Origin: Chloroflexota bacterium
GTDB taxonomy: Bacteria; Chloroflexota; Dehalococcoidia; Dehalococcoidales; JBDRCY01
Reading direction: 5' to 3'
Assembly: GCA_043821265.1 (NCBI GenBank)
Contig: JBDRCY010000026.1
Location: 2,813-66,812 of the forward strand
DNA: 64,000 bases
In this document: piece after piece, positions 33,284 to 49,204 of the stretch
Layout: the number at the start of each line of letters is the position of its first letter
Position numbering within the stretch: the stretch's first letter is position 1
The notes under the pieces: generated by a model
What the model saw: the letters and a program-made list of their open reading frames with translations, nothing else
Databases searched by the model: none
What the model was told of the DNA's origin: nothing
Position numbers and translations under genes: made by a program

Positions 33284-33308
33284 TTTATCTAAGGCCTCCT
33301 TTACGGGT

Positions 33309-34058: not shown

Positions 34059-34067
34059 TTTACTCCT

Positions 34068-35297
34068 TTACGCGGCGCGTCTTATAACGATGCAGCAGTT
34101 CTGTCCGCCCATGCCGAAGGAGTTGGAGAGACATATATTAACTGGCTGATGGCGTGCCTTATTGGGCACATAATCGAGGTCACAGTCCGGGTCGGGGGTT
34201 TCGTAGTTGGTGGTGGGCGGGATAATGCCGGAGTTGATGCTCTTGACGACGGCCACGGCTTCCACGGCCCCGGCGGCGCAGGCCATATGCCCGATCATCG
34301 ATTTGATGGAGCTTACGGGTATCTGGTAGGCCTTCTTCCCGAAGGCCATCTTGATGGCCTGGCTCTCGGCGCTGTCGTTGAGCTTGGTGCCGGTGCCGTG
34401 GGCATTGATATAATCGACCTCTTCCGGTGAGATACCGGCGTCCTCGATGGCCATTTTCATGGCTTGGGCCTGCATTTCGGCATCGGGGGCAACATCGTTA
34501 TAGGCGTCAAACGACCAGCCCGCCCCGGCCAGTTCCGCCAGTATGGGCACCTTACGCTTGCGGACATGTTCTTCGGTTTCCAGTATGACTATGCCGGCCC
34601 CCTCGCTGTGAATAAAACCGTCCCGGTTGAGGTCGAAGGGGCGGCTGGCTTTCTGTGGGTCCGGGTTTCGCGACAGGGCGCCCACCCGGCCGCAGCTGGC
34701 GACAGCGATGGGGGTTACCTGCGACTCGGCTCCGCCGGCAATCATGACATCGGCATGTCCCAGGCGGAGATGGTTCAGTGCGGTGCCCAGGGCATCGCTT
34801 CCGCTGGCGCAGGCGCTGTTCAGGCTCAAATTAGGCCCCTTAAGGCCGAATACCAGGCCTACCTGTCCCGGCACCATGCTTGGTGCCACCTTGTTGATAA
34901 GCAGCGGGTCGACCCTCATCGGCCCGCGTTTCTTGATGGTCTCACCGAATTCAGCTAGCAGGGAGACCATGCCGCTGGTGGCAATTACTACCCCCACCCT
35001 TTCCGGCCTCTCCCGGGATATGTCCAGGCCCGCTTCCGCTATCGCCATTTTAGTGGCGGCGATGGCGAACTGGGTGCAGCGGGCGGTGCGGTCAACTCGC
35101 TTGATGTGCATATAATTGGTGGGTTCAAAGCCCTTCACCTCGGCGGCTATCTTGATGGGGTAAGAGCTGGCATCGAACTGCGTTATCGGGCCGATGCCGG
35201 ACCGGCCGTTGATTAGTCCCTGCCAGTAGGACTCCACGTCCAGCCCCAGGGGGGTGATGGCACCGAGCCCGGTAATAAACACTCTACGATTCGACAA
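34068..35297 (-). CDS. fabF: Beta-ketoacyl-ACP synthase II
   Basis: NSACASGSDA, NAHGTGTKLND, IGHMACAAG, NSFGMGGQN. TTG start at 35297 lies 5 nt after GAGGAGG and gives about 410 aa. The ORF track start at 35369 overlaps fabL by 86 nt. Confidence 0.9.
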   Translation of the reverse strand: MSNRRVFITGLGAITPLGLDVESYWQGLINGRSGIGPITQFDASSYPIKIAAEVKGFEPTNYMHIKRVDRTARCTQFAIAATKMAIAEAGLDISRERPERVGVVIATSGMVSLLAEFGETIKKRGPMRVDPLLINKVAPSMVPGQVGLVFGLKGPNLSLNSACASGSDALGTALNHLRLGHADVMIAGGAESQVTPIAVASCGRVGALSRNPDPQKASRPFDLNRDGFIHSEGAGIVILETEEHVRKRKVPILAELAGAGWSFDAYNDVAPDAEMQAQAMKMAIEDAGISPEEVDYINAHGTGTKLNDSAESQAIKMAFGKKAYQIPVSSIKSMIGHMACAAGAVEAVAVVKSINSGIIPPTTNYETPDPDCDLDYVPNKARHQPVNICLSNSFGMGGQNCCIVIRRAA

Positions 35298-36084
35298 CTT
35301 GGCCTCCTCGGTTAAGGTCTGCGGGGTTAAGGCCGACCGAGGATAGGGATTGGCCGCCGTCAATGACAATGATTTGTCCGTTTATCATCGCCGCCTCGTC
35401 GCTGGCGAGGAAGGCGACCACGTTGGCCACGTCCTCCGGCTGTACCATCCGGCCCACGGGCGTAGTCTGCCAGGCCCCCTTGGGCAGTGCCGGGTCACTG
35501 GTATATATCTTGAGGGTCTCCGTTTCCACGGCGGAGGGGGCTACCCCGTTGACGCAGATGCCCCTGGGGGCCAGCTCGGTGGCCAGGTAGCGCGTCAGTG
35601 CCTCCAGTGCGGCCTTGGATACACCTACGGCGGTGTAAACGGGCAGGGTCAGACGGGAGCCGAGGCTGGATATGCTCACCATCTTGCCGCCGTTCTGCAT
35701 CAAGTGAGCGGCCCTCTGGGCACAGAGCAGGAAGGCCCGGGCATTTATATCCATGGTCCAGTCCCAGCTTCTACTATCCAGGTCGAGGGCGGGGCGGGCA
35801 ACGCCAGAGGCGGCGTTACTTATGAATATGTCCAGCCGGCCGAACTTCGCCTCTATCTCATCGAACATTTGGTCTATCTTTTCCGGTTCGCCCACATTGG
35901 CCTTGATGGTGTGGGCGCTAACACCCTTGTCCCGGGCTTCCTGGGCGGTGAGGTTGGCGGCCTCTCGCTTGCGGAAGTAATTAATAATGACGTCAGCCCC
36001 CTCTGAGGCTAATTTCAGGGTAATGGCCCGGCCAATTCCCCGGGAGCCGCCGGTTATCAGGGCGATTTTACCTTTGAATGACAT
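35284..36084 (-). CDS. fabL: Enoyl-ACP reductase, FabL-type SDR
   Basis: 266 aa. Co-linear by eye with B. subtilis FabL as I remember it (ITGGSRGIGRA, KANVGEPEKI, FGRLDIF, NNAASGV, WDWTMDINA, VSISSLGS, YTAVGVSKAALEALTRYLA). Confidence 0.75.
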   Translation of the reverse strand: MSFKGKIALITGGSRGIGRAITLKLASEGADVIINYFRKREAANLTAQEARDKGVSAHTIKANVGEPEKIDQMFDEIEAKFGRLDIFISNAASGVARPALDLDSRSWDWTMDINARAFLLCAQRAAHLMQNGGKMVSISSLGSRLTLPVYTAVGVSKAALEALTRYLATELAPRGICVNGVAPSAVETETLKIYTSDPALPKGAWQTTPVGRMVQPEDVANVVAFLASDEAAMINGQIIVIDGGQSLSSVGLNPADLNRGGQVVES

Positions 36085-36107
36085 CTTCTACCTCGTTAGC
36101 ACGGCGG

Positions 36108-36350
36108 CTATTTCCTTTCCGCTGCCTTGCGCTCGATGTAAGCGATAAAGTCGCCCATATTTTGGGCGTCCTTGAGCTCCTCGTCCACTATCTCGATGTC
36201 GTAGGTATCTTCCAGGGCGACCAGTATTTGCACGATATCGAGTGAGTCAGCCTGTAAATCCTTGAAGGTGGTGGTGGGGGTGAAATCCACATCCGGCTTG
36301 CGTACGATCTTGGTCACAATCTTCTTTACCGTTTCTTCAACTGTTGGCAT
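36108..36350 (-). CDS. acpP: Acyl carrier protein
   Basis: 80 aa. Phosphopantetheine site LQADSLDIVQ. Confidence 0.92.
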   Translation of the reverse strand: MPTVEETVKKIVTKIVRKPDVDFTPTTTFKDLQADSLDIVQILVALEDTYDIEIVDEELKDAQNMGDFIAYIERKAAERK

Positions 36351-36388
36351 GTAGCACTCCTTTGCTTATTTGGTCTCAACATCTTTGG

Positions 36389-37393
36389 TTATTCGGCTGT
36401 TTGCAGTTTACTGCGGGCGGCCGCCAGTTCGGCCTTCAGTGCGCCTAATATATCCTGTTCCACCGCTATCTTAGCCTGCTCGATTACCTTGACAATTTCG
36501 CCGTAATGGCAGCGGCCGTGGGCCACACAGGCGACCCCGTTTACCGCCAGTAATGGCCCCCCGCCCCGGGCATCGGCGGCATTGGTGGCCAGTATCAGGC
36601 TATCGGTAATCTCCTTGATATCGCTTTCGGGTAGTTTATTCTTTAGCTTATCTTCAAGCCACCGGGCGGTAATTTTCCCCAGGGACTCGCAGAATTTTAT
36701 CATGATATTGCCCACGAAACCATCGCAGATAATGACGTTGGCCTTGCCCAACGCTACGTCGTAGCCCTCCACATTGCCGATAAAGTTAAGCCCGCACTTC
36801 TGGAAGAGGGGATAGCTGGCCCTTACCTGTTCATTGCCCTTGCCCTCTTCGGCGCCGATGCTGAGGAGGGCCACGGTGGGATTGGGGATATTCATGAATT
36901 TGCGGGCGAGCACGGTGCCCACGATGGCGAAATCTATGAGCTGGTCCGGCCGGCAATCTACGTTGCCACCGCAGTCCATCACGACGGTATTTGGGGCGAA
37001 ACCGAGGAAGGCACCGCCTACCACGGGGCGGGCTATCCCCTCCACGGTGCCCAGTACCCCCAGGGCTGACGCTACTACTCCGCCCGTAGGCCCGGCACTG
37101 ACCATGGCATCCGCCCGGCCGTCCCTTACCAGCTTGGTGGCGACCAGGATGGAGGCATTCCGCTTCTGGCGCAGGGCATAGGCGGGGTGTTCGCCCTCTA
37201 CCAGGTATTCATTGGTGGCTACGATGTCAATGTTAGCCCCCGAGGTGTCGTGCTTGGCCAGTTCTTTGTTGATGATATCCTCTGGCCCGACGAGTGTGAT
37301 ATCGACGCCGTACTGCTTGGCGGCTATCACTGCGCCCTTTACAATATCATCAGGGGCATGGTCGCCGCCCATGGCGTCAACTGCTATGCGCAT
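36389..37393 (-). CDS. plsX: Phosphate:acyl-ACP acyltransferase
   Basis: 334 aa. MRIAVDAMGGDHAP, FIGNVEG, CDGFVGN. Confidence 0.92.
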   Translation of the reverse strand: MRIAVDAMGGDHAPDDIVKGAVIAAKQYGVDITLVGPEDIINKELAKHDTSGANIDIVATNEYLVEGEHPAYALRQKRNASILVATKLVRDGRADAMVSAGPTGGVVASALGVLGTVEGIARPVVGGAFLGFAPNTVVMDCGGNVDCRPDQLIDFAIVGTVLARKFMNIPNPTVALLSIGAEEGKGNEQVRASYPLFQKCGLNFIGNVEGYDVALGKANVIICDGFVGNIMIKFCESLGKITARWLEDKLKNKLPESDIKEITDSLILATNAADARGGGPLLAVNGVACVAHGRCHYGEIVKVIEQAKIAVEQDILGALKAELAAARSKLQTAE

Positions 37394-37826
37394 TGCTCTT
37401 TACCTCTAGGCTGGCTTCTCCGGTGATTATGGACTCTCCCTTTTGATTCTGGACGGATATCTCGCAATCGACTTTGGTCTGCTCTCCGGCTTTTTCTATA
37501 CGGCGTACCTGGCCGTTAATGGTAACGGTATCGCCCGGCCGGGCGGGATTTCTAAACCTTACGTTGAGCTTACCCCCGATGAGCCAGCTTGGCCCGAAGG
37601 CGGCCGTCATCATCTGGGAGACATAGGCCAGGACGAGCATCCCGTGGGCGATAGTGCCGCCCAGTGGGGTCTTCTTGGCGAAATCCTCGTCTATGTGGAT
37701 GGGATTAAAATCCCGGCTGGCTTCGGCATAGAGGTTGATGTTCTCTTGGGTAACCGTCTTGCTAAGCCCGGGGAGATTCATCCCCTCGGTCAGTCTATCC
37801 AGTTCTAATGGTGGACTGTTTCCCAT
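37377..37826 (-). CDS. MaoC-like hot-dog dehydratase, catalytic type
   Basis: 149 aa. Hydratase-2 motif YAEASRDFNPIHIDEDFA with Asp and His present. Overlaps the plsX start by 17 nt. Confidence 0.8.
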   Translation of the reverse strand: MGNSPPLELDRLTEGMNLPGLSKTVTQENINLYAEASRDFNPIHIDEDFAKKTPLGGTIAHGMLVLAYVSQMMTAAFGPSWLIGGKLNVRFRNPARPGDTVTINGQVRRIEKAGEQTKVDCEISVQNQKGESIITGEASLEVKSNAHSS

Positions 37827-37831
37827 TTTAG

Positions 37832-38251
37832 TTAGCTATCCTCTGCTGGCTGCGGTAGTATAAAACCGGTTCTTCCGGCGAGAACCGGTTGGCCGCCCTG
37901 GTTACGGACATCGAGGGTAACGGTCAACAGGTGCAGTCTGCCTCGTTCCTGCTTCCGGCTCACTTTAGCATAGGAGGTGATAGTGTCGCCTATATTCGTG
38001 GCGTTGATGAAATCCAACTCCTGGGAGATATGTATCGTCCCCGGAGGTAGCGAGATAGCCTCACCCAGGGCGGCCATGGCATAGGCGGCTATCGCCGTGG
38101 GCGGGACGAGCCCACCGTCCCCATACCGGTTGCTATCCTCGACTGCCTTGAGGTAGGTGGCCACCGCGGCCGGCTCCAGCCGGTAGCTGGCCGGCGGGAA
38201 CTCGTAGCCTGGCTCAAGTTGGCTGAATTCGACCTTTGGCTGCTCTGGCAT
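37832..38251 (-). CDS. MaoC_dehydrat_N-like hot-dog protein, non-catalytic type
   Basis: 139 aa, hot-dog-sized, lacks the D-x-N-P-x-H motif. First gene of the fab operon, 5 nt upstream of its catalytic partner. Confidence 0.65.
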   Translation of the reverse strand: MPEQPKVEFSQLEPGYEFPPASYRLEPAAVATYLKAVEDSNRYGDGGLVPPTAIAAYAMAALGEAISLPPGTIHISQELDFINATNIGDTITSYAKVSRKQERGRLHLLTVTLDVRNQGGQPVLAGRTGFILPQPAEDS

Positions 38252-38288
38252 ACTATTTGACCCAGGGTTTTTTCTTCCGTATACTCAA

Positions 38289-38353: not shown

Positions 38354-38563
38354 GAATTTATAAGAAGCGTTCATTGGGCTATAAAGAGAGGGCTGTCCGG
38401 CGAGGCTAGCGGTATGGCTTCGTGCTGGGTGCAGCCGCCCGAAAAAACGTGTATAATAGATGATATTCATCAATCTGAGGGGCTTGTTCCTGTAATATTC
38501 TGGTACTATCAGGTTCAGAGCGTATACCATTATCTATATCATCATTGAGAGAGAAGGCCGCTT

Positions 38564-40006
38564 ATGGGTAGTTTGAATTTAGTGAAGGACCTGGCGGGGA
38601 TTGTCGGTGTCGATGCTGTTACTAACGAGGCGGGTCAGCTGAGCCGTTATGCGCAGGACTTCAGTCTGCAGCCGCCGAAGCAGCCCGGTTGCATAGTCTA
38701 TCCACGGGATGCAGAGCAGGTCCGGGAGATTATGCGATATGCCGACCAGCAGCTGGTTGCGGTAACCACCCGTTCTTCGGGGGTCGGCTTCTACGGGGCG
38801 GGCATTCCGGCTGAGGGAGGCATTGTCCTGGACCTGTCGCCGATGAACCGGATACTGGAGGTAGACCGCAATAACAAGCGGGCCAAGCTGCAGCCGGGGG
38901 TGACCTGGGAGCAGGCCCAGCGCGAGCTGGGCAAGCAGGGCCTGTTCGTGAGCAATCCCCTGCTCCCCCATCGCTTGAAGTCGGTCCTGACCAGCTCCCT
39001 GGAGAGGGAGCCGCTCTTAAGTACCAAATCGGAGTATGGCGAGACCTTCATCACTTCGGAGATGGTGCTGGCTAACGGGGACCTATTCTGGACCGGCACC
39101 GGTATATCCAAGGGGATGGTCGGTCAGTCTTTCCCCGATTGCCTGGTGCCCGGCACCCGGCTTTTTATGGGTGCCCAGGGCACCCTGGGGATACAGACCT
39201 GGGCCAATATCAAGATTGAGTATCTCCCTATAAAGAACAAGATTGTCCTGATACCGTTTAAGGATATAGACGATATGGTAGCGCCCATATACCGCCTGCA
39301 GCGGCTTTTAATCGGTAATGAATGCTTTGTGCTTAATCACCTGGACATGGCCAGCATACTGGCGGAGAAATGGCCGGATGATTTCAAGGAACTGCGCCAG
39401 TCGCTGCCGCCGTGGCTGTTAGTCATTTGTCTTACCGGCATGAAGCGGCTGCCTGAGGAGAAGATAGCTGCCGAGGAAGAGGCCCTCATGGAGATAGCGC
39501 GGGAGTTTCACCTTGAGCCGGCCCCGGCGGTGGCTGCTATTTCCGGGCTGGAGGATAAGATACTGGCCTGGCTCCGCCTGCCGTGGCCGGGGGAGACCTA
39601 CTGGAAATTCCGCTACCGGGGAGGACGGCAGGATGTCTTCTTCCATACTACCCTGGACCGGGTTCCGGGATTGGTGAAGGCCGTAGAGGAAGAAGCGGTT
39701 AAGCATAACTACCCCGCCGGGGATATCGGTATATACCTGCAGCCGATAGAGAGGGCCCATGCCTGTTTCTGCCAGTTCGGTTTCCACTATAATCCTAGCG
39801 ATAGTGATGAGGTTGAGCGGCTGCGGAAGCTATTTCTGGCGGCCAGTGAGCGGGTTATGGATATGGGTGGCCTCTTTACCACCCCCTATGGCCCCTGGGC
39901 GGACATGGTTTATAGCCGGGCTGATACCTATAAGTCGGTTATGAAGGTAATCAAGGATGCCGTTGACCCCAACCACATCTTGAACCCGGGCAGGTTGTGT
40001 CTTTAA
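38564..40006 (+). CDS. FAD-linked oxidase (FAD_binding_4 / GlcD-like)
   Basis: 480 aa. PCMH-type FAD domain (IVYPRDAEQVREIMRYA, TTRSSGVGFYGAG), C-terminal DPNHILNPG. Confidence 0.8.
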   Translation: MGSLNLVKDLAGIVGVDAVTNEAGQLSRYAQDFSLQPPKQPGCIVYPRDAEQVREIMRYADQQLVAVTTRSSGVGFYGAGIPAEGGIVLDLSPMNRILEVDRNNKRAKLQPGVTWEQAQRELGKQGLFVSNPLLPHRLKSVLTSSLEREPLLSTKSEYGETFITSEMVLANGDLFWTGTGISKGMVGQSFPDCLVPGTRLFMGAQGTLGIQTWANIKIEYLPIKNKIVLIPFKDIDDMVAPIYRLQRLLIGNECFVLNHLDMASILAEKWPDDFKELRQSLPPWLLVICLTGMKRLPEEKIAAEEEALMEIAREFHLEPAPAVAAISGLEDKILAWLRLPWPGETYWKFRYRGGRQDVFFHTTLDRVPGLVKAVEEEAVKHNYPAGDIGIYLQPIERAHACFCQFGFHYNPSDSDEVERLRKLFLAASERVMDMGGLFTTPYGPWADMVYSRADTYKSVMKVIKDAVDPNHILNPGRLCL

Positions 40007-40021
40007 AGAGGAGAAGATGAC

Positions 40022-41281
40022 ATGGTAATGGAAGGCGGGAAATCACTGCCCAAGGACGGGTGGTACCGCAAGTATTACTGGGAATTAAGAAAGAATGCCT
40101 GGAACTGTGCCCGTTGCTCGGTGTGTAAATGGATAGACTCCTGGGAGGTTAAGAGCGCCCGCTTTGCCAAGGCCTGCCCCAGTAGTGACCGCTACCTCTT
40201 CGATGCTTACTCCTGCCAGGGGAGGATGGACCTTTCTCTGGCCTTGATAGACGGAGAGATAAGGTATGAAGATTCCCCGGGGCTGCTGGATGTGATGTAC
40301 CGCTGTGATACCTGTGGCGGCTGCGATGTCTCCTGCAAGCGCGTCCAGGATATGGAGCCACTGAGGGTGATGCTGGAGATGAGGGCCAAGCTGGTCGAAG
40401 ACGGCCAGCTACTGCCGATGCACACACCGGTTATGGAGAGCCTGCGTCAGGAAGATAATATGGTGATGAAGCCCCGGGCCGAGCGGGGCAAATGGGCGGA
40501 TGGGCTCAAGGTCAAGGACTTAACCAGGGAGAAGGCGGAGGTCGTCTTCCATGCCGGCTGTCGTTTAAGCTATGACGATGACCTCAAGCAGGTGGCCAGG
40601 GACGTAATAAATCTGCTGAATAATATCGGGGTTGATGTCGGTACTATGGGGGCGGAGGAAGCCTGCTGTGGTGGCCGGGCTTACGATATGGGCTACCGGG
40701 GTGAGTTTACCAAATATGCCGAGCATAACCTGGAGGCGTGGGCTAAGGCCGGGGTGAAGACGGTAATTACGACATGCTCCGATGGCTATTATACCTTCAA
40801 GCTCCTCTACGCCGAGATGGGTTCCAAACTGGAAGTCCTCCATATCGTGGAGTTCGTTGACCGCCTCATCAAGGACGGTAGATTGCGCTTTACTAAATCA
40901 GTCCCGATGACCGTTACCTATCATGACCCGTGCCACTTGGGCCGGCGCAGCAATGTCTACACTGCCGGTGAGCCTATCGACGGCATCTATGAGCCGCCCC
41001 GGGACATCATAAGGGCCATACCCGGCGTAGAACTGGTGGAGATGGAGAGGATAAAGGAGCATGCCTGGTGCTGTGGCGCCGGTGGTGGGGTAAGGGAGGC
41101 CTATCCCGACTTCTCGCTGTGGACGGCCAGGGAGAGGATAGCGGAGGCCAGGGCATCCGGGGCCAGTGCTATAGTTACCGCCTGCCCCTGGTGTGAGCGC
41201 AATTTCATTGATGCGGTAGGCGATAGCGGCGAGCAGATAGCAGTGTACGATATTATGGAGCTCATCGAGCGGGCAATCTAG
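40022..41281 (+). CDS. Fe-S oxidoreductase with two CCG domains (GlcF / HdrD-like)
   Basis: 419 aa. CARCSVCKW...CPS and CDTCGGCDVSC, then HAGC...EACCGGRAY and HDPCHLGRR...HAWCCGAGGG. Confidence 0.85.
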   Translation: MVMEGGKSLPKDGWYRKYYWELRKNAWNCARCSVCKWIDSWEVKSARFAKACPSSDRYLFDAYSCQGRMDLSLALIDGEIRYEDSPGLLDVMYRCDTCGGCDVSCKRVQDMEPLRVMLEMRAKLVEDGQLLPMHTPVMESLRQEDNMVMKPRAERGKWADGLKVKDLTREKAEVVFHAGCRLSYDDDLKQVARDVINLLNNIGVDVGTMGAEEACCGGRAYDMGYRGEFTKYAEHNLEAWAKAGVKTVITTCSDGYYTFKLLYAEMGSKLEVLHIVEFVDRLIKDGRLRFTKSVPMTVTYHDPCHLGRRSNVYTAGEPIDGIYEPPRDIIRAIPGVELVEMERIKEHAWCCGAGGGVREAYPDFSLWTARERIAEARASGASAIVTACPWCERNFIDAVGDSGEQIAVYDIMELIERAI

Positions 41282-41299
41282 GAAAGGGGACGTCTTAAG

Positions 41300-42874
41300 A
41301 TGCCATTGGGTGACGAGAAACACAAGGCCATATACCAGGCCCTGGTTGATATCCTGGGTGGCGAATATGTCTCCGATGATGTCGCGGTCATGCAGGCCTA
41401 TAGCCGGGACTGTTATGCGGCGGCGGTGCTCAAGAGGCGCCGTCCCGAATTTGTGGCCCTGCCGGGTTCAACAGAGAATATAGTGGCCATTATTAAGATG
41501 GCTAACCGGCTGGGGATGCCCTTTACGGTTATCGGCTCGGGGCTCTTTTTCCCGCATACGGTGGCGGTCAGGGACTACTGGTGTATAGTGGACCCGAAGC
41601 GGATGAAACGGCTGGAAGTTGATGCGACCAATATGACGGCTATCATCGAACCGGCGGTTACCCATGCTCAGCTACATGCGGAGGCAATGCAGCGAGGATT
41701 GCACTGTGGTGTCCCCGAGGTGGGGGGGCAGGCCAACCACCTGGCTAATGTTATCTGGGCCGGCAATCAGGGCACCGGCTACCGCACCGGCATGGCGGCG
41801 CGTAATATCCTGGGTGTGGAATGGGTTCTGCCCAATGGCGAGGTGCTCAAGACGGGTTCCCTGTCCAATCCGCAGGGTGGTTATTTCTGGGGGGAGGGCC
41901 CGGGCCCGGATATGAGGGGTCTGCTCAGGGGGGTGTCGGGGAATCACGGCAGTCTGGGGATTGTTACCCGGTTGGCCGTTAAGCTCTACCCCTGGCCGGG
42001 CCCGAAGGTATTGCCCACCGAGGGTATTGCCCCGGCCAAGAAGTGTGAACTGCCCACTGATAAGTTCAAATGGTTCCTCTTTTCCTATCCCAGCCTGGAG
42101 AAGATGATAGACGCGATGTACGAAATCGGCCATGCCGAGGTCGGCGGCATTATGCATCACTGGCCGCCGCTCTACTTTGATTACTGGTGGGCCAAGTCAC
42201 GCCAGGAGTACTGGGAGACCTGGCTCAGGGAGTACTGGCAGAGTAACTGTCGCAACGTGGTGGTCGTCCAGATATGGGCACATACCTCGGCCCGGCAGAT
42301 GGAGTACGAGGAGAAGGTCTTAAGGCAGATTATCGAGGAGACCGGTGGCCAGATGCTGTCCCAGGAGGTCATCGATATGTGGGTGCCCTACTGCGCCAAT
42401 AACTGGGTGCGGGATACCAATGGCTGCCGCTGGATGAACATCGGCGGTTCGCTGGGCAATGCCGGCATCTTCTTCGATACCATGGATACCGGGCTTAAGG
42501 TCTTTCCCCGCGGCCATGAATTCGCCAGGCAATATACACCACCGATTCTGGACTATGATGAAAGCGATTGGATTCTACCCTTCGATTTCTGTCACTCGGC
42601 CCTGTGCGAGATAGACTATCCCTTTGAGAAATCCCCGGAGACCTGCAAGGAAATCGCCACCAGCTTTATGGATTTGATTAAACGGGGTAGGAGGGAAAGT
42701 ATTATCGACCTGGCTACCGGCATGACCGGTCTTACCGTTATCGGTAAGGATTTCGCCAATATCCACCTGCTGATGGGCCGTATCAAGAAGTCCGTAGACC
42801 CCAATAACGTGGCCAATCCCACGCGGTTTGTTAACCTGGAGAAGCTGGAGCAACTGGAGCAGGCTCAAGGGTAG
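41300..42874 (+). CDS. Second FAD-linked oxidase (FAD_binding_4 family, divergent)
   Basis: 524 aa. [31 protein letters not shown]-terminal DPNNVANP. Confidence 0.75.
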
Positions 42875-42888
42875 GGCCTATTCTGAGT

Positions 42889-43851
42889 ATGAAACTACTG
42901 GCGCCGGTGGATAGGGTCGAGGAGGTGGCGGCGGTTATCCGTGCCGGGGCCGACGAGTTGTACTGCGGGCTGCTTACCGCCGACTGGCATGAGCGGTATA
43001 TTGCCGGCTCTATCAACCGGAGACCGGGCGGCGGTGCCAGTTTTACCACCCTCGCTGATCTGGCGGCCTGTGTCGACATTGCTCACTCTTCGAACGTCCC
43101 CGTTTTCTTAGCCGTGAACGAGCACTACTATACCCGGGAGCAGTACCCTTTTATCCGGGACTATGTGGAGAAGGTAGCGGCCGTCGGTATTGATGCCCTG
43201 ATGGTGGCCGATTTGGCCCTGCTACTGACCCTGCGGCAGATGGAGACCGGGATAAAGGTGATTATCAGCACCGGGGGGACCGCCTTCAATTCAGAGACAG
43301 TAAGGTTCTATCAGGACCTGGGGGCATCACGGGTAACGCTGCCCAGGCATCTGACACTGGACGAAATAGGGGATATCAGGGCCGGTGCCCCCGATGTTGA
43401 GCTGGGGGTCTTTATTTTGAACTCTCGCTGTCCCAACGTGGATGGCTTCTGCACCTTTCAGCACGGCCTGGCAAATAAATCCCTGAAACCACTGTTTCAG
43501 AATGCCTGTATGTTGCCCTATGAGGTATCTCTGGGGGCCGGTGGTGAACAGTCGCGGGTGTCATGGGAGCGGCAGCATATCTGGCAGCTAGTGCACATCG
43601 ATGACCACCCCTGTGGCGCCTGTGCCATCTATGACCTTGCCGGGACGGGTGTCAGCAGCCTAAAGATTGTCGGCCGGGGAAATCCGACGGCCCGGAAGCT
43701 AACCGACATCGGCTTTATCCGCTCGTTACTCGAGTTTCGGGAAAATGAGCGGCCCACAAGGGATGAATTCAGGGAGGTGGCACAGCAGCGGTATCGGGAC
43801 ACCTACCAGCGCCCCTGCCGGGGCTATATGTGCTACTATCCTGTCTGGTAG
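42889..43851 (+). CDS. Peptidase-U32-family protein, UbiU-like (divergent Cys pattern)
   Basis: 320 aa. MKLLAPVDRVEEVAAVIRAGADELYCG, DALMVADL, RVTLPRHLTLDEI. Cys residues at NSRCPNVDGFC, HPCGAC, RPCRGYMC. Confidence 0.7.
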   Translation: MKLLAPVDRVEEVAAVIRAGADELYCGLLTADWHERYIAGSINRRPGGGASFTTLADLAACVDIAHSSNVPVFLAVNEHYYTREQYPFIRDYVEKVAAVGIDALMVADLALLLTLRQMETGIKVIISTGGTAFNSETVRFYQDLGASRVTLPRHLTLDEIGDIRAGAPDVELGVFILNSRCPNVDGFCTFQHGLANKSLKPLFQNACMLPYEVSLGAGGEQSRVSWERQHIWQLVHIDDHPCGACAIYDLAGTGVSSLKIVGRGNPTARKLTDIGFIRSLLEFRENERPTRDEFREVAQQRYRDTYQRPCRGYMCYYPVW

Positions 43852-43858
43852 TTTGGTT

Positions 43859-44650
43859 ATGGAACAGGCATTATTTATCGCAAAGGTTGAGCATCTGAAG
43901 TATTATGAGCCTCGTTTCTCCCGGATATACTTCGGTAATGAGTTCTGCCAGCAGCTTATTCCCTCCGTCGGTGATTTGGAGCGGGTACTGGATTTTGTGG
44001 GGCAGAATAATCTCGATTTCACCCTGGTCAGTCCGTATGTTACCGACCGGGGGTTGGAGGGATTGGAGCCCCTGCTGGCGGCGACTGCGGAGGGCAAGCC
44101 GGGTAGCGAGGTGGTCTTTAACGATTACGGGGTGTGGCGTGTCCTTAAGGGCCGCTATCGGGGGCTTAGTCCGGTGATGGGGCGCCTGCTGAATAGAATG
44201 AAGCGTGGGCCCAGGTTGATGACGGTCATTGATAAACTGCCGTCGAGCACGGTGGACTACTTCAGGAGTTCGAACCTTGCCGTGCCCGTCCTGCGCTGGT
44301 TTCTGGCCGAAAGCGGGGTCAGCCGGGTGGAACTGGACAATGTACTTCAGGGTATGGACTTTAACCTCGATGGCCTGAAGGCGTCGCTGTACTGGCCCTA
44401 CGCTTACGTTACTACGACGCGGCTGTGTCTGGCGAATTGCGGCGAAGAACCGGAGAGCCGAGAGAAGATTGGCATTTTCCCCTGCGAGCGGGAGTGCCGG
44501 AAATACACCTTTTACCTGGAGAATGAGGCAATGCCGGTCCCCCTGATAAGGAAGGGTAACACTATCTTCTTTGAAAACGAGGCGTTGCCCGATGATATGT
44601 CCGGGTTGGGGATAGACCGTATCGTTGTTGAGCCTGAGTTGCCCATTTAG
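43859..44650 (+). CDS. Peptidase-U32-family protein, UbiV-like
   Basis: 263 aa from the ATG at 43859. RIYFGNEFCQQL resembles UbiV VIYLGEAVCSKR, YWPYAYVTTTRLCLANC resembles YGHLPLAYSARCF, and PCERECRKY resembles ECETCCIKY (E. coli sequence from memory). Confidence 0.6.
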   Translation: MEQALFIAKVEHLKYYEPRFSRIYFGNEFCQQLIPSVGDLERVLDFVGQNNLDFTLVSPYVTDRGLEGLEPLLAATAEGKPGSEVVFNDYGVWRVLKGRYRGLSPVMGRLLNRMKRGPRLMTVIDKLPSSTVDYFRSSNLAVPVLRWFLAESGVSRVELDNVLQGMDFNLDGLKASLYWPYAYVTTTRLCLANCGEEPESREKIGIFPCERECRKYTFYLENEAMPVPLIRKGNTIFFENEALPDDMSGLGIDRIVVEPELPI

Positions 44651-44655
44651 TCTGT

Positions 44656-45588
44656 TTACAATCCCCTCAGGTATTCCGGGCGCAGTGAATACGGGTTCCT
44701 GGCGGCCAGCACCCCCTCCAGTTCTCTTATAATCCGGTCTTTCTCTCGCGGTAATCGTCCCCGGATCGAGAGGTAATTAGAGGCGTGCATGGAGCTGAAA
44801 AAACAGTCGGAGAAGGTGACATTTTCGGTAATCAGCTTGAGCTCTTGTATCGAGTCGAATGGGGAAACGGGTAAGAAGTGTCCCTGCTGCCAGTCGCGGT
44901 ATAGCGGGGTGCCGGGAACGAGGGTCAGAGTCAGGGCGCCGACGTAATCCGGGTCGGTCTCGGTGAGAATTCTGGCCGTCGCCAGGGCGTGTCGCTGGCT
45001 GGCCTCGACTCCACCCAGCCCCAGAATTACGGTGGCGGAAAGGGTGGTACCGGCCGCCTTCGCCTTCCTGGCGGCGTCCACTATCTGGCGGTGGGTCGCT
45101 CCCTTCCCCACCCTTTTCAATATTTCATCATCACCGCTCTCAATCCCCATGTAGAGCAGGCTCAGTTTAAGCTCTCTCAGCTCTTTGAGTTCGCCGGGGG
45201 TGCGTCGCTGGATATCCTGGGGGGTGGCGTAGGCCCCGATTCTTTCCAGGGTGGGAAACCTCTCGTTTAGGTATTTAAGGGCTGCCTTCAATCTGGGTAG
45301 GGGGTAGACCAGCGCATCGCCATCCTGCAGAAAGACCCTCTTGCCATCCCATTGCTGGGCTATATAGTAGACTATCGGTGGGATATTGGGCCGACAAATA
45401 CCCTCCTCGGCGTAGAGGGCCAGGGCGTCTATCTCCTCTTTGACCTCTTCTATCTCTCTTAGCGCCAGTTTAGCCCCATAGAAGTTGCAGAAGGTGCAGG
45501 TATTATTGGAGCAGCCGCCGGTTACCGGCAGGAAGTAGCTGCGGTGTTCGCTGGGTGGTCGTATAATCTCTGGTCTGGTAAAAGACAT
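44656..45588 (-). CDS. Radical SAM protein with a CX4CX2C cluster motif
   Basis: 310 aa from the ATG at 45588. VTGGCSNNTCTFCNFYG verified codon by codon. LQDGDAL and YMGIESGDDEIL are typical radical SAM core elements. The longer ORF to 45831 overlaps the upstream gene. Confidence 0.8.
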   Translation of the reverse strand: MSFTRPEIIRPPSEHRSYFLPVTGGCSNNTCTFCNFYGAKLALREIEEVKEEIDALALYAEEGICRPNIPPIVYYIAQQWDGKRVFLQDGDALVYPLPRLKAALKYLNERFPTLERIGAYATPQDIQRRTPGELKELRELKLSLLYMGIESGDDEILKRVGKGATHRQIVDAARKAKAAGTTLSATVILGLGGVEASQRHALATARILTETDPDYVGALTLTLVPGTPLYRDWQQGHFLPVSPFDSIQELKLITENVTFSDCFFSSMHASNYLSIRGRLPREKDRIIRELEGVLAARNPYSLRPEYLRGL

Positions 45589-45592
45589 GGTT

Positions 45593-46408
45593 TTACTGAC
45601 TGGCTGGAGGTGCGCTATCTCCGAAAATAAATTCCTTGATTTCCTTAAAATACCTTTCGGCGCCCACCAGCATGATGTCGTTGTGGTTGGCTCTGTCGAT
45701 GATAACCAGGCGTTTCTGGCTCGCGGCGGCATTGTTATAGAGGTCATGCGCCTCGACGGAAGGGATAAGGCTATCGTGCTCTCCGTGCAGGATGAGGGTG
45801 GGCACGGTAACCGACCGCATCTTGGCGGCATTGGGGAAGGCGGTGTTATGCAGCTCTAGGAGCTCGGTGAATAAACCGAGGTGAGTGAGCAGCCTTATGA
45901 TACTGGCGAAACCGCTTTCGATAATCAACCCCTTGATATGTTCCGGATAGACTGAGGCTAACTCAATGGCTGATATGCTGCCCAGGGAGCGGCCCATGAT
46001 AAAAACGTCGCCGGTATAACGGGACTGATTCAGGATGTCCAGAAAGGCGGGGAAGATGTGGTGCGTATCGCCCACCATAGCGGTAAAGCTGGGGGTGCCG
46101 CTGCTGGAGCCATAGCCACGATAGTCGGTCACAAACAGGTTTATGCCTAGCTGGTGGTATAGCGGGGCTATGGCGTCATAGTCGCTGGCCACCTCACCGT
46201 TGCCATGAAAGAAGAGAATAGACGGCGAACTGGTGGTGTGTGTGTAAAAGCGGCAGCCTATTCGCGCCCCATCATCTACGGCAATGGCATGGTCGGTGGC
46301 GCCCGGCGGGGCCTGGCTGCTGTCCGTGCGAGGGTAAAAGACGAACTGGAGAATATCGGGCCGGTCCAGCAGGCCGTAGGCTTCACGGAAGGACATGTTT
46401 CGGCTCAT
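45593..46408 (-). CDS. Alpha/beta hydrolase (serine hydrolase)
   Basis: 271 aa. FFHGNG, nucleophile elbow GRSLGS, HGEHDSLIP, ANHND. Confidence 0.8.
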   Translation of the reverse strand: MSRNMSFREAYGLLDRPDILQFVFYPRTDSSQAPPGATDHAIAVDDGARIGCRFYTHTTSSPSILFFHGNGEVASDYDAIAPLYHQLGINLFVTDYRGYGSSSGTPSFTAMVGDTHHIFPAFLDILNQSRYTGDVFIMGRSLGSISAIELASVYPEHIKGLIIESGFASIIRLLTHLGLFTELLELHNTAFPNAAKMRSVTVPTLILHGEHDSLIPSVEAHDLYNNAAASQKRLVIIDRANHNDIMLVGAERYFKEIKEFIFGDSAPPASQ

Positions 46409-47183: not shown

Positions 47184-47441
47184 TCAGCCCTCGGCGGTGG
47201 TCTCCCCCTTCTTTTCCGTAGCCGGCGCTGCCGGCTTATCTCCGTTTCGCTTGTGGCCCGGGTTATTTCGGCTGTCGGTTACGTAAAAGCCTGACCCCTT
47301 GAAGATTATGGGCACCGGCGAGAAGATGCGCCTGGCGCTACCCTGGCACTGGGGACAGGTAGCATCTGAATTGTCATTAAAGCCCCGCCTGAGGTCAAAG
47401 GTGTAGGAGCAATTTTCACACTGGTATTCGTAGATCGGCAT
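47184..47441 (-). CDS. FmdB-family zinc-ribbon protein
   Basis: MPIYEYQCENC...CPQC, followed by a basic/Gly-rich tail. Confidence 0.8.
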   Translation of the reverse strand: MPIYEYQCENCSYTFDLRRGFNDNSDATCPQCQGSARRIFSPVPIIFKGSGFYVTDSRNNPGHKRNGDKPAAPATEKKGETTAEG

Positions 47442-47886: not shown

Positions 47887-48879
47887 ATGGACCCGGAAAG
47901 GGAGAAACCAGTCCAGCTGAATGATTTCAAACCGGGGCAGGAGCGCTTCCTCGCCGAGGTCTTAAGCGGCCTGCGTAAACCGCAAAAAGAATTGCCCTCC
48001 AAGTATTTCTACGATGAGCGTGGTTCTCTTTTGTTCGATCGTATCTGCACCCTGGATGAATACTATATCCCGCGCACGGAAGGGGCCATCATGGAGACCT
48101 ATATCGAAGAGATGGTGGAACTAATCGGCCCCGGTATTCTCCTGATTGAATATGGCAGCGGGAGTAGCGATAAGACGCGTATCCTCTTGGAGCACCTTAA
48201 GGGCCTGGCGGCCTACGTGCCGATTGATATCTGCCGGGAGCAGTTACTGCGGGTGAGTCGTGAGCTTACCTCGGCCTATGCTGGGCTTCAGGTGTTGCCG
48301 GTCTGCGCCGACTATACGAGTAGCTTTGAGTTGCCCTCCCCGGAGCGGCCCGGCGAGCGCCAGGTGGTCTATTTCCCCGGCTCTACGATTGGTAACTTTG
48401 ACCCTATCCCCGCCAAGCTTTTCTTGGAGCATGTTGCCGGGGTATGTGGCCCGGGCGGCGGGCTACTTATTGGTGTGGACCTTAAAAAAGACCCCGAGGT
48501 GCTCCACCGTGCTTATAATGATAGCCAGGGCGTCACCGCAGCCTTTAACCTCAATCTACTTGAGCGAATAAACGGTGAACTGGGCTGCGACTTTCAACCC
48601 GAGGGCTTCGAGCATTATGCTTTCTATAATCCGGGCCAGGGTCGGGTTGAGATGCACCTGGTGAGCCGGAGAGACCAGATGGTCCATCTGGATAACGTGA
48701 CCATCCCTTTCGCTAAGGGGGAAAGTATCTGGACGGAGAGTTCATATAAGTATAACATTGACGAATTTGAACAGATGGCTGCGGCGGCAGGATTTAGGGT
48801 GGAGCAGGTCTGGACGGACGCCAAGCAGTGGTTCAGCGTGCAGTACCTGTCGAGCACCGGGGGGCAATTTTATAGTTAG
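47887..48879 (+). CDS. egtD: L-histidine N-alpha-methyltransferase (EgtD/EanA type, makes hercynine)
   Basis: 330 aa. PQKELPSKYFYDERGSLLFDRICTLDEYYIPRTE, YGSGSSDKTR, FPGSTIGNF, RAYNDSQGVTAAFNLN, TESSYKY. Co-linear with M. smegmatis EgtD as remembered. Confidence 0.85.
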   Translation: MDPEREKPVQLNDFKPGQERFLAEVLSGLRKPQKELPSKYFYDERGSLLFDRICTLDEYYIPRTEGAIMETYIEEMVELIGPGILLIEYGSGSSDKTRILLEHLKGLAAYVPIDICREQLLRVSRELTSAYAGLQVLPVCADYTSSFELPSPERPGERQVVYFPGSTIGNFDPIPAKLFLEHVAGVCGPGGGLLIGVDLKKDPEVLHRAYNDSQGVTAAFNLNLLERINGELGCDFQPEGFEHYAFYNPGQGRVEMHLVSRRDQMVHLDNVTIPFAKGESIWTESSYKYNIDEFEQMAAAAGFRVEQVWTDAKQWFSVQYLSSTGGQFYS

Positions 48880-48895: not shown

Positions 48896-49204
48896 TCACC
48901 GGCAGGGAATTAAGCGTACTATGTTCTTCTCTTGAAGCACCTGTGCCAGTGCCGATACCGTTTCGTCGATATCTTTTTCCGTAGTGTAGCGGGACAGCGA
49001 AAAGCGCACTGCGCAGTGGGCCTCCTCCTCGGTCCGCCCCATGGCCATGAGCACATGCGTGGGCTCCGGAGAGCCTGATTTGCAGGCCGACCCCGAAGAG
49101 AGGGAGATGTCGTGCTGGTCCAGCGCTAGCACCAGCGATTCCCCTCGCAGTCCCGGCAGGGTCAAGTTAAGGGTGTTGGGCAGCCGCTTTTGCGGGGTGA
49201 CCAT
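48896..49204 (-). CDS. C-terminal piece of the cysteine desulfurase module (contains the catalytic Cys loop), split from the upstream ORF by a 1-nt frameshift
   Basis: KRLPNTLNLTLPGLRGESLVLALDQHDISLSSGSACKSGSPEPTHVLMAMG is the canonical NifS/IscS C-terminus. Confidence 0.8.
   Translation of the reverse strand: MVTPQKRLPNTLNLTLPGLRGESLVLALDQHDISLSSGSACKSGSPEPTHVLMAMGRTEEEAHCAVRFSLSRYTTEKDIDETVSALAQVLQEKNIVRLIPCR

Follow-up and report, generated by a model that had tools for sequence, protein, structure and literature searches.

A cluster of five genes in a 64,000-nt stretch of Chloroflexota DNA (the window, whose numbering is used throughout) raises the question of whether a flavo-iron-sulfur module and a pair of U32-type proteins are simply neighbors or operate together as one redox system. 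An initial annotation had described five same-strand open reading frames with short gaps, and these were confirmed: g1 (38564..40006), g2 (40022..41281), g3 (41300..42874), g4 (42889..43851), and g5 (43859..44650) all lie on the + strand and are separated by 15, 18, 14, and 7 nt. The motifs quoted in that annotation are all present in the translations, and its remark that the host looked non-proteobacterial was right; the source is a Chloroflexota MAG, as shown by proteins in NCBI that are 100% identical. Ribosome-binding sites of the GGAG/AGGGG type precede g2 and g3, and a scan of the operon gave no convincing internal terminator. The 312-nt intergenic region 5' of g1 holds two sigma-70-like promoter matches on the + strand (38257-38285 and 38514-38542), which, as 10/12 and 9/12 matches from a consensus scan only, are weak evidence; no Rfam element was found in this region. 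Neither transmembrane segments nor signal peptides were found in any of the five proteins.

The product of g1 (480 aa) is a VAO/PCMH-superfamily flavoprotein, the size of a GlcD/LctD subunit, with Pfam matches to FAD_binding_4 (2.1e-23) and FAD-oxidase_C (1.1e-05); its top PDB sequence match is LctD (7qh2_C, 1.7e-19). The g2 product (419 aa) is an iron-sulfur protein of the HdrD/GlcF/TfrB type, in which Pfam detects CCG in two stretches (1.6e-31) and, weakly, Fer4_8. It also matches NCBIfam TfrB (5.8e-51, under the cut-off) and, in the PDB, 9ojn_A (4.7e-30) and HdrB (3e-10). At least 22 of the 24 family members retain the cysteines of its two ferredoxin-type 4-Cys motifs (C29/32/35/52 and C95/98/101/105) and two CCG domains (C180/215/216/252 and C304/350/351/388/391). 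HdrD/TfrB/GlpC-type subunits have the same set of two [4Fe-4S] ferredoxin motifs and two CCG domains, but g2 differs from them in being soluble and lacking a membrane partner among the genes nearby, in having four of the usual five cysteines in its first CCG domain, and in its partner proteins. A second VAO/PCMH-superfamily flavoprotein (524 aa), encoded by g3, is recognized by FAD_binding_4 only (2e-17) and has a divergent cap domain. Its top PDB sequence matches, vanillyl-alcohol/eugenol oxidase and PCMH-type enzymes, cover the FAD domain only; its AF2 model is weak (pLDDT 65), and the Foldseek matches comprise the whole superfamily, with TMq values from this weak model of 0.62 for D-LDH and 0.66-0.69 for 4-alkylphenol oxidases. 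In Dehalococcoidia relatives, this subunit is tandem-duplicated, with up to four copies (paralogues at loci L006, L007, L085, and L090).

The trio formed by g1, g2, and g3 had been labeled GlcD/GlcF/GlcE-like. Indeed, E. coli GlcDEF also consists of two FAD_binding_4 subunits and an Fe-S subunit that carries ferredoxin-type as well as CCG motifs; GlcD aligns with g1 over its full length and GlcF with g2 over residues 94-419 (a stretch spanning the second ferredoxin-type motif and the two CCG domains), in each case at 21% identity. However, the likeness is one of architecture only. All NCBIfam equivalog scores lie 6- to 20-fold under their cut-offs (for g1 against GlcD, 91.9 bits with a cut-off of 567.9), g1 has 'TPYGPW' where E. 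coli GlcD has 'GEHGIG', g3 is unlike GlcE (350 aa; local E 0.003), and the gene order is D-F-E-like rather than D-E-F. Given these scores, the low identity, and the lost 'EHG' motif, the trio as GlcDEF was ruled out.

A better comparison for the trio is the putative heterotrimeric flavoprotein known from anaerobic benzene degraders, namely the 'Magic' proteins #24-26 of Ca. Anaerobenzenivorax ORM2 and BzS1_12970/80/90 (PMC13101534, PMC13416013). Compared by description, these agree with the trio in order and architecture (FAD_binding_4 plus FAD-oxidase_C first, next an HdrD-like Fe-S protein bearing two Cys-rich domains, and last FAD_binding_4 alone) and are likewise GlcDEF-like at no more than 23% identity. 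An ETF has been proposed as the partner of 'Magic'/BzS1, and relatives of the operon's module occur together with ETF genes; lower-identity homologues in non-benzene degraders are described as having 'other metabolic functions' (PMC13101534, PMC13416013). Unlike the five-gene operon, the 'Magic'/BzS1 clusters have CoA-transferase and beta-oxidation genes on their flanks, and no U32 gene has been reported in them. That a homologous-looking trio functions with no U32 protein on record counts against U32 coupling. Furthermore, the 'Magic'/BzS1 flavoprotein may itself be catalytic, beyond mere electron transfer. The trio could perform C-H activation or dehydrogenation, as proposed for 'Magic'/BzS1, while the U32 pair handles a different step in a shared catabolic route with no direct electron exchange. 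The match in order and architecture favors this explanation, as do the catabolic neighbors in related loci (acyl-CoA mutase with MeaB, HGD-D, thiolase with a ChsH2-type OB-fold protein, and tandem g3 paralogues). It would, however, leave the known electron-acceptor need of U32 enzymes without explanation, and it is considered fairly unlikely, also in view of the gene neighborhoods described below.

The product of g4 (320 aa) is a UbiU-like U32-family iron-sulfur protein. It matches Peptidase_U32 at 5.2e-36 (124.5 bits; cut-off 22.4), and hhalign against E. coli UbiU gives a probability of 99.2% (E 1.4e-19) over residues 1-198. With the cluster cysteine motifs taken from PMC6747719, the UbiU ligands C169/C176/C193 align with g4 C181/C188/C207, so that the two proteins are alike in their N-terminal 200 residues and in three cluster cysteines. 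However, the NCBIfam UbiU score is 85.8 with a cut-off of 440, and g4 has four to five additional invariant cysteines (in PCGAC and RPCRxYMC, and C26). Eight family-invariant cysteines (26, 181, 188, 207, 242, 245, 310, and 315) are kept in at least 75 of 77 members, and the extra four to five probably form a second metal site. There is also a likeness to TrhP and RlhA, U32 proteins with a 4-Cys motif that are required for ho5U34 (tRNA) and ho5C2501 (23S rRNA); the NCBIfam TrhP model matches the N-terminal 219 residues of g4 at 1.3e-22, with a score of 80 versus a cut-off of 534. Unlike g4-g5, TrhP and RlhA are single-protein systems with neither a g5-type partner nor flavo-Fe-S operon partners.

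The start of g5 was set at 43859 (MEQALF, the start in every homologue; the mechanical ORF start is 43745). The 263-aa product has no Pfam match, nor has any of 28 close relatives scanned up to E = 10, and thus the domain assignments of the initial annotation stand for four of the five genes. An hhalign sequence test of g5 as a U32 homologue gave probabilities of 1.5-18%, i.e., no statistical support, and weak Peptidase_U32 matches were seen in 6 of 81 diverse relatives. The family, which numbers 1909 cluster representatives at E<=1e-3, has no Pfam model. On the other hand, Foldseek with the AF2 model (pLDDT 77.7) returned the U32 structure 5D88 (E 7.5e-6) as the sole match below 1e-3. UbiV C39/C193/C197 align with g5 C30/C209/C213, while g5 C190 lies one column off UbiV C180; C30, C190, C209, and C213 are invariant or nearly so among relatives. 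From the predicted fold, the cysteine alignment, and the weak matches in relatives, g5 is shown to be a highly divergent protein of predicted U32 fold that can be labeled UbiV-like. A missing U32-profile match had been named beforehand as grounds for refutation; g5 did fail to give one, and it passes on fold and cysteine motif only.

The g4-g5 pair can be compared as a whole with UbiU-UbiV (E. coli YhbU/YhbV), an O2-independent, prephenate-dependent ubiquinone hydroxylase. In both systems, adjacent genes encode a ~320-aa and a shorter U32-fold protein, the first cysteine of the UbiV-type protein lies far upstream of a C..C-x3-C motif, and the electron acceptor that is needed is yet to be identified. 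The suggested UbiU/UbiV-like pairing is borne out by the aligned ligand cysteines of g4 and g5 and by the fold of g5, but not by profile, as profile methods do not detect g5 as UbiV. The systems also differ in that E. coli ubiUV has no flavo-Fe-S operon partners whereas g4-g5 has dedicated ones, and in that the g4-g5 host belongs to the Chloroflexota and the g4 subfamily occurs also in archaea, which are not known as ubiquinone producers. No SCP2-domain (UbiT-like) match was found among the g4-g5 neighbors scanned. Database names ('U32 family peptidase', 'collagenase-like PrtC protease') would instead make g4 and g5 peptidases. These names are the only source of that reading, which is hardly credible: both proteins reside in the cytoplasm and lack a signal peptide, share invariant Fe-S-type cysteine motifs with UbiU/UbiV, and have redox proteins as operon partners, and the characterized U32 members are Fe-S hydroxylase components.

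Is the association of the two modules conserved? Among species-representative genomes, the g4 subfamily falls into five clades, in three of which (Chloroflexota, Bathyarchaeia, and Desulfobacterota-like) it adjoins g2-like and/or g1/g3-like genes in shuffled order and orientation. Dehalococcoidia loci read g1-g2-g3(n)-U32-small; Bathyarchaeia loci read FAD-FAD-CCG-U32-small or are divergently transcribed; and Desulfobacterota-like loci read ETFa-ETFb-FAD-CCG-FAD-...-U32-small. In a second, independent sample of 38 metagenome loci seeded on g5, 31 have a g4-type U32 gene no more than 400 nt from g5; among the 23 long loci, 14 have a g2-like gene and 10 have FAD genes. Thus, the co-conservation that had been expected holds in the three groups but is not universal. 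Two large clades, in housekeeping contexts reminiscent of TrhP/RlhA, have no flavo-Fe-S genes near the U32 gene, and three of nine Chloroflexota loci have g4-g5 with an ETF-domain gene only; consequently, the flavo-Fe-S module is optional, or its partners can be encoded elsewhere. Such contexts (lipB-lipA-small-U32-dnaJ; an atp operon with U32 and radical SAM genes after it), together with one archaeal relative surrounded by translation genes, would fit a housekeeping U32 pair for RNA or cofactor hydroxylation, co-transcribed by chance with a D-2-hydroxyacid or glycolate-type dehydrogenase. This is very unlikely, given that the trio misses every GlcDEF equivalog cut-off and that the modules are found side by side across three phyla and two domains, in differing order and orientation, for which shared ancestry alone is an insufficient explanation. 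In addition, one entire clade (clade IV, eight loci) has a CCG gene followed, after 30-90 nt, by U32 only, with no adjoining flavoprotein genes, and some metagenome loci read g5-g4-(2 kb)-g2. Both arrangements point to g2 as a direct partner of U32 and speak against separate enzymes of a shared pathway.

Taken together, these results have led to a model in which the five proteins form one soluble, cytoplasmic electron-transfer complex serving O2-independent hydroxylation, a reading that is on balance probable. In this model, g4 and g5 would form a UbiU/UbiV-like heterodimer with one [4Fe-4S] cluster each, and g2, with two [4Fe-4S] and two CCG-type clusters, would couple the dimer to the flavoproteins g1 and g3. 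In the preferred direction, the dimer would carry out a two-electron oxidation or hydroxylation of a non-ubiquinone substrate, with prephenate, by analogy, or water as oxygen donor. Electrons would exit via g2 as the hub, and g1/g3 would either feed electrons of later dehydrogenation steps into g2 or pass them to an acceptor; ETF-domain genes are added in related loci. The self-contained hydroxylation system suggested in the initial annotation is an inference. Class-I SAM methyltransferase fusions recur among g5-family proteins, which still adjoin a U32 gene, a pattern in keeping with ubiquinone and mo5U synthesis, where hydroxylation is followed by methylation.

Note, however, that GlcDEF/LctD-type enzymes normally run from substrate to FAD to Fe-S, so that passing electrons on from Fe-S to FAD would be out of the ordinary. 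Electrons might therefore flow in reverse: the trio would oxidize a small donor of the 2-hydroxyacid or alkylphenol type and pass electrons via g2 to the U32 dimer as a terminal reductase, e.g., in an IspH-like reductive dehydroxylation. A Metallomics review considers IspH-like chemistry conceivable for U32 clusters, and reductive ATP-driven enzymes (BcrAD activase, HGD-D subunits) occur in Desulfobacterota-like clusters. Nevertheless, this direction is fairly unlikely. All U32 proteins of known role support hydroxylation, which is an oxidation; the methyltransferase fusions suit hydroxylation followed by methylation better than reduction; and g1 lacks the GlcD 'EHG' motif, which has a role in 2-hydroxyacid dehydrogenases.

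Under the preferred model of O2-independent hydroxylation, using prephenate as the oxygen donor would come at a very high cost should the pathway be catabolic. The initial annotation had suggested that the redox partner of U32 enzymes is unresolved, in agreement with the statement that the electron acceptor of the U32 hydroxylases is unidentified (PMC10990095), and that the arrangement had not been described; no prior description of a flavo-Fe-S/U32 linkage was found in the literature searched. With the association kept in related anaerobic bacteria and archaea, the flavo-Fe-S partners are candidates for the electron route that U32 enzymes have so far been missing.

The five genes g1 to g5 were recovered as ORFs on the + strand at exactly the positions assigned to them in the initial annotation, which had suggested that they form an operon and could serve anaerobic hydroxylation. 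Two FAD_binding_4 flavoprotein genes, g1 (38564-40006) and g3 (41300-42874), enclose g2 (40022-41281), the gene for a CCG-type Fe-S protein; this trio is followed by g4 (42889-43851), encoding a U32 protein, and g5 (43859-44650), encoding a putative UbiV-like partner. The mechanical ORF start of g5 lies at 43745 and overlaps g4; the start was set by the homologues, all of which begin with MEQALF, placing the ATG at 43859. From g1 to g5, the intergenic gaps are 15, 18, 14, and 7 nt; g2 and g3 each have a purine-rich ribosome-binding site in front. A consensus scan found two promoter-like sites in the 312-nt stretch upstream of g1, with matches near chance, and no strong internal terminator in the operon, where it returned only short, near-chance hairpins. 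Rfam revealed neither a riboswitch nor any other RNA, whether upstream of g1 or elsewhere in the window, and no transmembrane segment or signal peptide was found in any of the five proteins.

Both flavoproteins match FAD_binding_4 in Pfam, in g1 together with FAD-oxidase_C and in g3 alone, and on sequence grounds they are VAO/PCMH-superfamily flavoproteins of undefined specificity. The nearest solved structures are LctD and glycolate/D-lactate dehydrogenases for g1, and vanillyl-alcohol oxidase, eugenol oxidase, and PCMH for g3, with the sequence alignment confined to the FAD domains. An AF2 model of g3 is of moderate confidence only (pLDDT 65), and its Foldseek matches cover the whole superfamily with the subgroups unseparated; consequently, no claim is made as to whether the g3 substrate class is D-lactate-dehydrogenase-like or 4-alkylphenol-oxidase-like. 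In g2, Pfam CCG is matched by two stretches (108.7 bits), and 17 Cys residues are conserved in at least 22 of 24 relatives. These comprise two ferredoxin-type four-Cys motifs and the Cys of the CCG domains, the first of which retains four of five and the second all five. The protein is predicted to be a CCG-type Fe-S protein with the HdrD/GlcF/TfrB layout, and the NCBIfam equivalog cut-offs for TfrB, HdrB, and DsrK are not reached.

It had been postulated that the trio is a GlcDEF-like module. The architecture agrees, since both systems have two FAD_binding_4 subunits and an Fe-S subunit with CCG domains, but the sequences do not. NCBIfam equivalog scores lie 6- to 20-fold under the cut-offs (GlcD, 91.9 for g1 and 49.7 for g3 versus 567.9; GlcF, 33 versus 333; GlcE, 14.3 versus 284). 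By BLASTP, g1 and g2 each share 21% identity with E. coli GlcD and GlcF, respectively, and g3 barely matches GlcE (E 0.003). Furthermore, the GlcD sequence GGSISGEHGIG stands opposite GGLFTTPYGPW in g1, from which the C-terminal EHG motif is absent. In D-2-hydroxyacid dehydrogenases, this motif is catalytic.

More recent work, in two papers of 2026, has described a highly abundant and presumably heterotrimeric flavoprotein, 'Magic'/BzS1, with the members WAC08368-70 and BzS1_12970-90, in anaerobic benzene degraders (PMC13101534, PMC13416013). Its order of subunits, FAD with FAD-oxidase_C, Fe-S, and FAD alone, is that of g1-g2-g3, a likeness drawn from the described architecture alone; it is itself GlcDEF-like at no more than 23% identity, ETF is its proposed partner, its lower-identity homologues in non-degraders have been credited with 'other metabolic functions', and neither paper mentions a U32 protein (PMC13101534, PMC13416013). 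The 'Magic'/BzS1 genes are flanked by CoA-transferase, beta-oxidation, or acyl-CoA synthetase genes, whereas the window operon is not. The identifier K08264 presumably denotes hdrD; it is carried by WAC08369.1 of the 'Magic' trio in the ORM2a supplement.

The neighbours of the operon are a divergent fatty-acid-synthesis cluster (PlsX, ACP, FabF, SDRs, MaoC-like), a radical SAM gene, and a hydrolase gene, and there is no ETF gene across the window's 64 kb. The cluster, which serves fatty-acid/phospholipid synthesis (32429-38251, - strand), encodes DegV, an SDR/FabG-like protein, a FabF-like protein, an enoyl-ACP-reductase-type SDR, ACP, PlsX, and two small hot-dog proteins, one of them MaoC_dehydratas and the other without a Pfam match. 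This MaoC pair brings to mind the MaoC genes that flank the 'Magic' cluster, but the simpler reading is that it belongs to the fatty-acid cluster; as a tie to 'Magic', the MaoC-like genes (37377-38251, - strand) are unsupported, lying on the opposite strand and contiguous with plsX-acpP-fabF-fabG. The radical SAM gene (44656-45831, - strand) converges on g5 with 5 nt between the stop codons. It has weak matches to TIGR01212 (MnmL/YtqA) and to B12-rSAM models, and it is weakly similar (1.7e-09) to a radical SAM gene found beside the clade-V U32 genes discussed below; its first ~80 codons look non-coding, and the true start is probably near MSFTRPEII. It was rejected as a member of the module, as its adjacency is not kept elsewhere. 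Further downstream lie a stand-alone gene for an EgtD-type histidine-specific SAM methyltransferase (47887-48879, + strand; Methyltransf_33, 8.9e-110), in an apparently anaerobic Chloroflexota host and with no EgtB-like gene noticed nearby, and a gene for an unusual 1046-aa fusion (49167-52307, - strand) of a molybdopterin oxidoreductase (Molybdop_Fe4S4, Molybdopterin, Molydop_binding) to a class-V aminotransferase/NifS-like cysteine desulfurase. A 102-aa ORF (48896-49204, - strand) resembles the missing C-terminal end of this desulfurase, and a frameshift or split gene is possible.

Pfam bore out the domains initially assigned to the operon in four of its five products: FAD_binding_4 in g1 and g3, CCG in g2, and Peptidase_U32 (PF01136) in g4, the last with 124.5 bits versus a cut-off of 22.4 (E 5.2e-36). 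Across its first 200 residues, g4 is related to UbiU (hhalign 99.2%). With the NCBIfam UbiU model NF047963, it scores 85.8 bits versus a cut-off of 440, in a match limited to residues 1-207; the NCBIfam cut-off for the TrhP equivalog is far from reached, and a PDB sequence search with g4 gave nothing useful. By these scores g4 is a bona fide member of the U32 family, in a distinct subfamily. The U32 [4Fe-4S] motif is CX6CX15-16C...C, in UbiV CXnCX12CX3C, as defined together with the UbiU/UbiV Cys motifs, the UbiV ligand assignments, and the heterodimer (PMC6747719). In an alignment of 77 g4-family members with E. coli UbiU, C181, C188, and C207 of g4 share columns with the UbiU ligands C169, C176, and C193, giving the spacing C181-x6-C188-x18-C207, with C242 or C245 as the candidate fourth ligand. 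Cys 26, 181, 188, 207, 242, 245, 310, and 315 are conserved in at least 75 of the 77 members. The extra Cys residues (PCGAC, RPCRxYMC, and C26) hint at a second metal site in g4; a more distant U32 relative of archaeal origin lacks them.

The fifth gene is the exception. On profile grounds, which the initial annotation had itself named as a point at which its proposal would fall, g5 fails as a U32 protein: neither g5 nor any of 27 close relatives has a Pfam match up to E = 10, NCBIfam gives no meaningful match, and hhalign shows no significant relation to the g4 family or to E. coli UbiV (probability 1.4-18%). Among 81 diverse relatives, Peptidase_U32 is matched weakly by six (best E 0.015) and is the sole Pfam family matched by more than one. 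The predicted fold and the Cys alignment are on the other side. The AF2 model of g5 (pLDDT 77.7, with low confidence in the Cys-rich segment 184-236) has a single Foldseek match in the PDB below 1e-3, to 5D88, the U32 peptidase Mk0906 (E 7.5e-6, probability 1.00, TM about 0.5), which is the U32 structure that the Metallomics review cites. When g5 is aligned to E. coli UbiV by MAFFT, there are 51 identities in 220 aligned positions; in this alignment, C30, C209, and C213 of g5 share columns with the UbiV ligands C39, C193, and C197, and C190 is one column off C180. The resulting spacing is C30...C190-x18-C209-x3-C213, and the flanking motifs pair as IYFGxEFC/IYLGEAVC, PYAY..TRLC/PLAY..ARC, and CERECRKY/CETCCIKY. 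Because of the fold match, the Cys alignment, and the recurrence of Peptidase_U32 among the weak Pfam matches, g5 is taken to be a divergent UbiV-like protein, U32-like by predicted fold and putative ligand pattern only. A four-Cys motif of the [4Fe-4S] type is present in both g4 and g5, with cluster binding putative. The g5 family has 1909 representatives at E<=1e-3 in a 50%-identity library.

To follow the arrangement across genomes, GTDB species representatives were scanned with the g4 family. This yielded 79 loci, in which ORFs were called and searched with the five window proteins, neighbour genes were clustered, and the U32 proteins were placed in a neighbour-joining tree, which is approximate; many of the contigs are truncated. 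A g5 gene adjoins the g4-type gene in 43 of the 79, and the tree has five clades. In clade I (Bathyarchaeia and a Desulfobacterota-like group), 12 of 14 loci have g4 and g5 beside g1, g2, and g3, and the other two are truncated contigs. The order varies: FAD-FAD-CCG-U32-small, where 'small' is the g5-type gene; a divergently transcribed trio; or ETFa-ETFb-FAD-CCG-FAD-acyl-CoA mutase-B12 subunit-MeaB-U32-small-FAD_binding_3-BcrAD activase-HGD-D. In clade III (Chloroflexota, window included), g1-g2-g3(n)-g4-g5 occurs in five of nine loci with up to four tandem g3 paralogues, and a convergent solitary ETF-domain gene is present in all eight non-window loci. In clade IV (Thermodesulfobacteriota), the U32 gene of eight loci is preceded, at 30-90 nt, by a g2-like gene and has neither a g5 nor any flavoprotein gene adjacent to it, and in one locus two flavoprotein genes take the place of the g2-like gene.

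Several individual loci add detail. The long clade I order runs on one strand in four Desulfobacterota-like loci (L071, L074, L076, L117), with MM_CoA_mutase as the mutase and two copies each of BcrAD activase and HGD-D; judged by its gene content, this cluster looks like an uncharacterised anaerobic catabolic pathway. One Bathyarchaeia locus (L021) has the FAD/CCG/FAD trio twice within 10 kb, one per strand, beside a single U32-small pair. Seven Dehalococcoidia-type loci (L006, L007, L085, L086, L090, L092, L101) carry two to four tandem g3-type paralogues directly upstream of U32-small, and in loci of this type the solitary ETF-domain gene (~263 aa, without an alpha-subunit partner) converges on the pair. 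A luciferase-like (Bac_luciferase) gene (L005, 5449-6456; L001, 11817-12692), which follows ubiV in E. coli (yhbW), also follows the U32-small pair in a Bathyarchaeia locus, there on the opposite strand; this may be coincidence.

In clades II and V, there is no linkage to flavo-Fe-S genes, and the surroundings of the U32 genes are conserved and of a housekeeping kind. Clade II has lipB-lipA-small-U32-dnaJ-tatC; in clade V, the ATP synthase operon comes first, and after it U32, an MBL-fold gene, and two radical SAM genes. The expected co-conservation of U32 and flavo-Fe-S genes is therefore seen, in whole or part, in clades I, III, and IV and is missing from II and V. In Thermodesulfobacteriota, lipB (LplA-B_cat) and a radical SAM gene of the lipA type consistently lie ahead of the small-U32 pair, and dnaJ-like and tatC-like genes often come after it (L031, L034, L037, L052, L059, L062, L063, L079, L082, L122, L130, L157, L158). 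In sulfur oxidisers, CCG-type proteins act with lipoate-binding proteins, and a lipoate link of the U32-small pair is conceivable from this context, which may instead be the synteny of one lineage.

Such housekeeping contexts raise the question of whether the window operon is simply a chance co-transcription of the trio with a housekeeping U32 pair. Another rival is that the U32 proteins are true peptidases. Both explanations are disfavoured, given the conservation pattern and the Fe-S signatures. A second, independent sample, of metagenome contigs seeded on the g5 family, has a g4-type U32 gene within 400 nt of g5 in 31 of the 38 loci with at least 1 kb on both sides; among the long loci, a g2-like gene is present in 14/23 and g1/g3-like genes in 10/23, and a further order, g5-g4-(2 kb)-g2, appears. 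Because the adjacency persists in two domains of life despite altered gene order and orientation, functional coupling of the U32 pair with the flavo-Fe-S genes is indicated. Judged by the CCG-U32 pairs, g2 is the probable direct partner of the U32 protein. Alternatively, the trio and the U32 pair might serve the same pathway with no direct exchange of electrons.

As to the reaction, the g5 family includes fusions to a class-I SAM methyltransferase domain (L087, 2963-6625; L088, 8001-9470; P0283, P0304, P0331, P0353). Both domain orders occur, one fusion also bears B12-binding/radical SAM and glycosyltransferase domains, and a U32 gene adjoins the fusion in both loci inspected (L087, where HxsD and SPASM-type radical SAM genes occur as well, and L088, an archaeal housekeeping region). 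In the synthesis of ubiquinone and of mo5U/cmo5U, hydroxylation comes first and methylation after it. Since the fusions fit this logic, a hydroxylase role for the U32 pair is favoured. To our knowledge, U32 proteins are the sole hydroxylating enzymes that use an organic oxygen donor without O2. For UbiU/V, 18O labelling has identified prephenate as the oxygen donor, and a two-electron oxidation of the substrate has been proposed; the electron acceptor of U32 hydroxylases has not been identified, and an in vitro assay is lacking (PMC10990095). The window module is not itself a UbiTUV system. In E. coli, ubiT adjoins ubiU, whereas no SCP2 (UbiT) domain was found among the operon proteins and scanned neighbours of the window (a set that excludes 47184-47441 and 48896-49204); UbiTUV is a ubiquinone system, whereas the host here, by the 100% identity of g4 and g5 to NCBI proteins from a 73.5-kb contig, is a Chloroflexota MAG that does not count as a ubiquinone producer. 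Rather, the module would work as if UbiU/UbiV were combined with a GlcDEF-like or 'Magic'-like module, while being a member of neither equivalog family. In agreement with the initial annotation, no description of a U32-flavo-Fe-S linkage was found in the literature searched, which spans part of the journals.

These findings have suggested a model, toward which we lean by a small degree, in which the five genes specify a single coupled redox complex. In it, g4 and g5 would pair as an Fe-S heterodimer of the UbiU/UbiV type, which oxidises or hydroxylates some substrate without O2, and the electrons would go via the extra g4 site into the clusters of g2, the hub common to g1 and g3. These flavoproteins would either add electrons from further dehydrogenation of intermediates of the same pathway or hand electrons to an acceptor, for which ETF is a candidate in related lineages. 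While the layout of the genes, their domains and Cys residues, the g5 fold, and the kept adjacency are shown, the chemistry and the direction we infer. That the overall direction is oxidative falls somewhat short of an even bet; flow might be reversed, with the U32 pair acting as a reductase. A wider hypothesis, rather unlikely to hold in full, is that the operon encodes a new O2-independent C-H oxidising/hydroxylating complex, in which the U32 Fe-S heterodimer catalyses and the HdrD-like protein and VAO-type flavoproteins (with ETF in some lineages) are the long-sought electron-acceptor chain. It would be used by dominant subsurface anaerobes (Dehalococcoidia, Bathyarchaeia, Desulfobacterota) against recalcitrant, perhaps aromatic, substrates and would be mechanistically related to the 'Magic' flavoprotein.

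The operon of U32-pair, Fe-S, and flavin genes supplies concrete candidates that can be tested as the missing electron-transfer partners of U32 hydroxylases, and it ties U32 chemistry to a flavoprotein trio sharing its architecture with one just implicated in anaerobic benzene activation. The g5 family, which Pfam does not model and which counts about 1900 clusters at 50% identity, becomes readable as the UbiV-like half of heterodimeric U32 systems. Lineages carrying the module dominate anoxic sediments, and in these abundant lineages the present annotations, "collagenase-like protease" and "glycolate oxidase", may mislead metabolic reconstructions.
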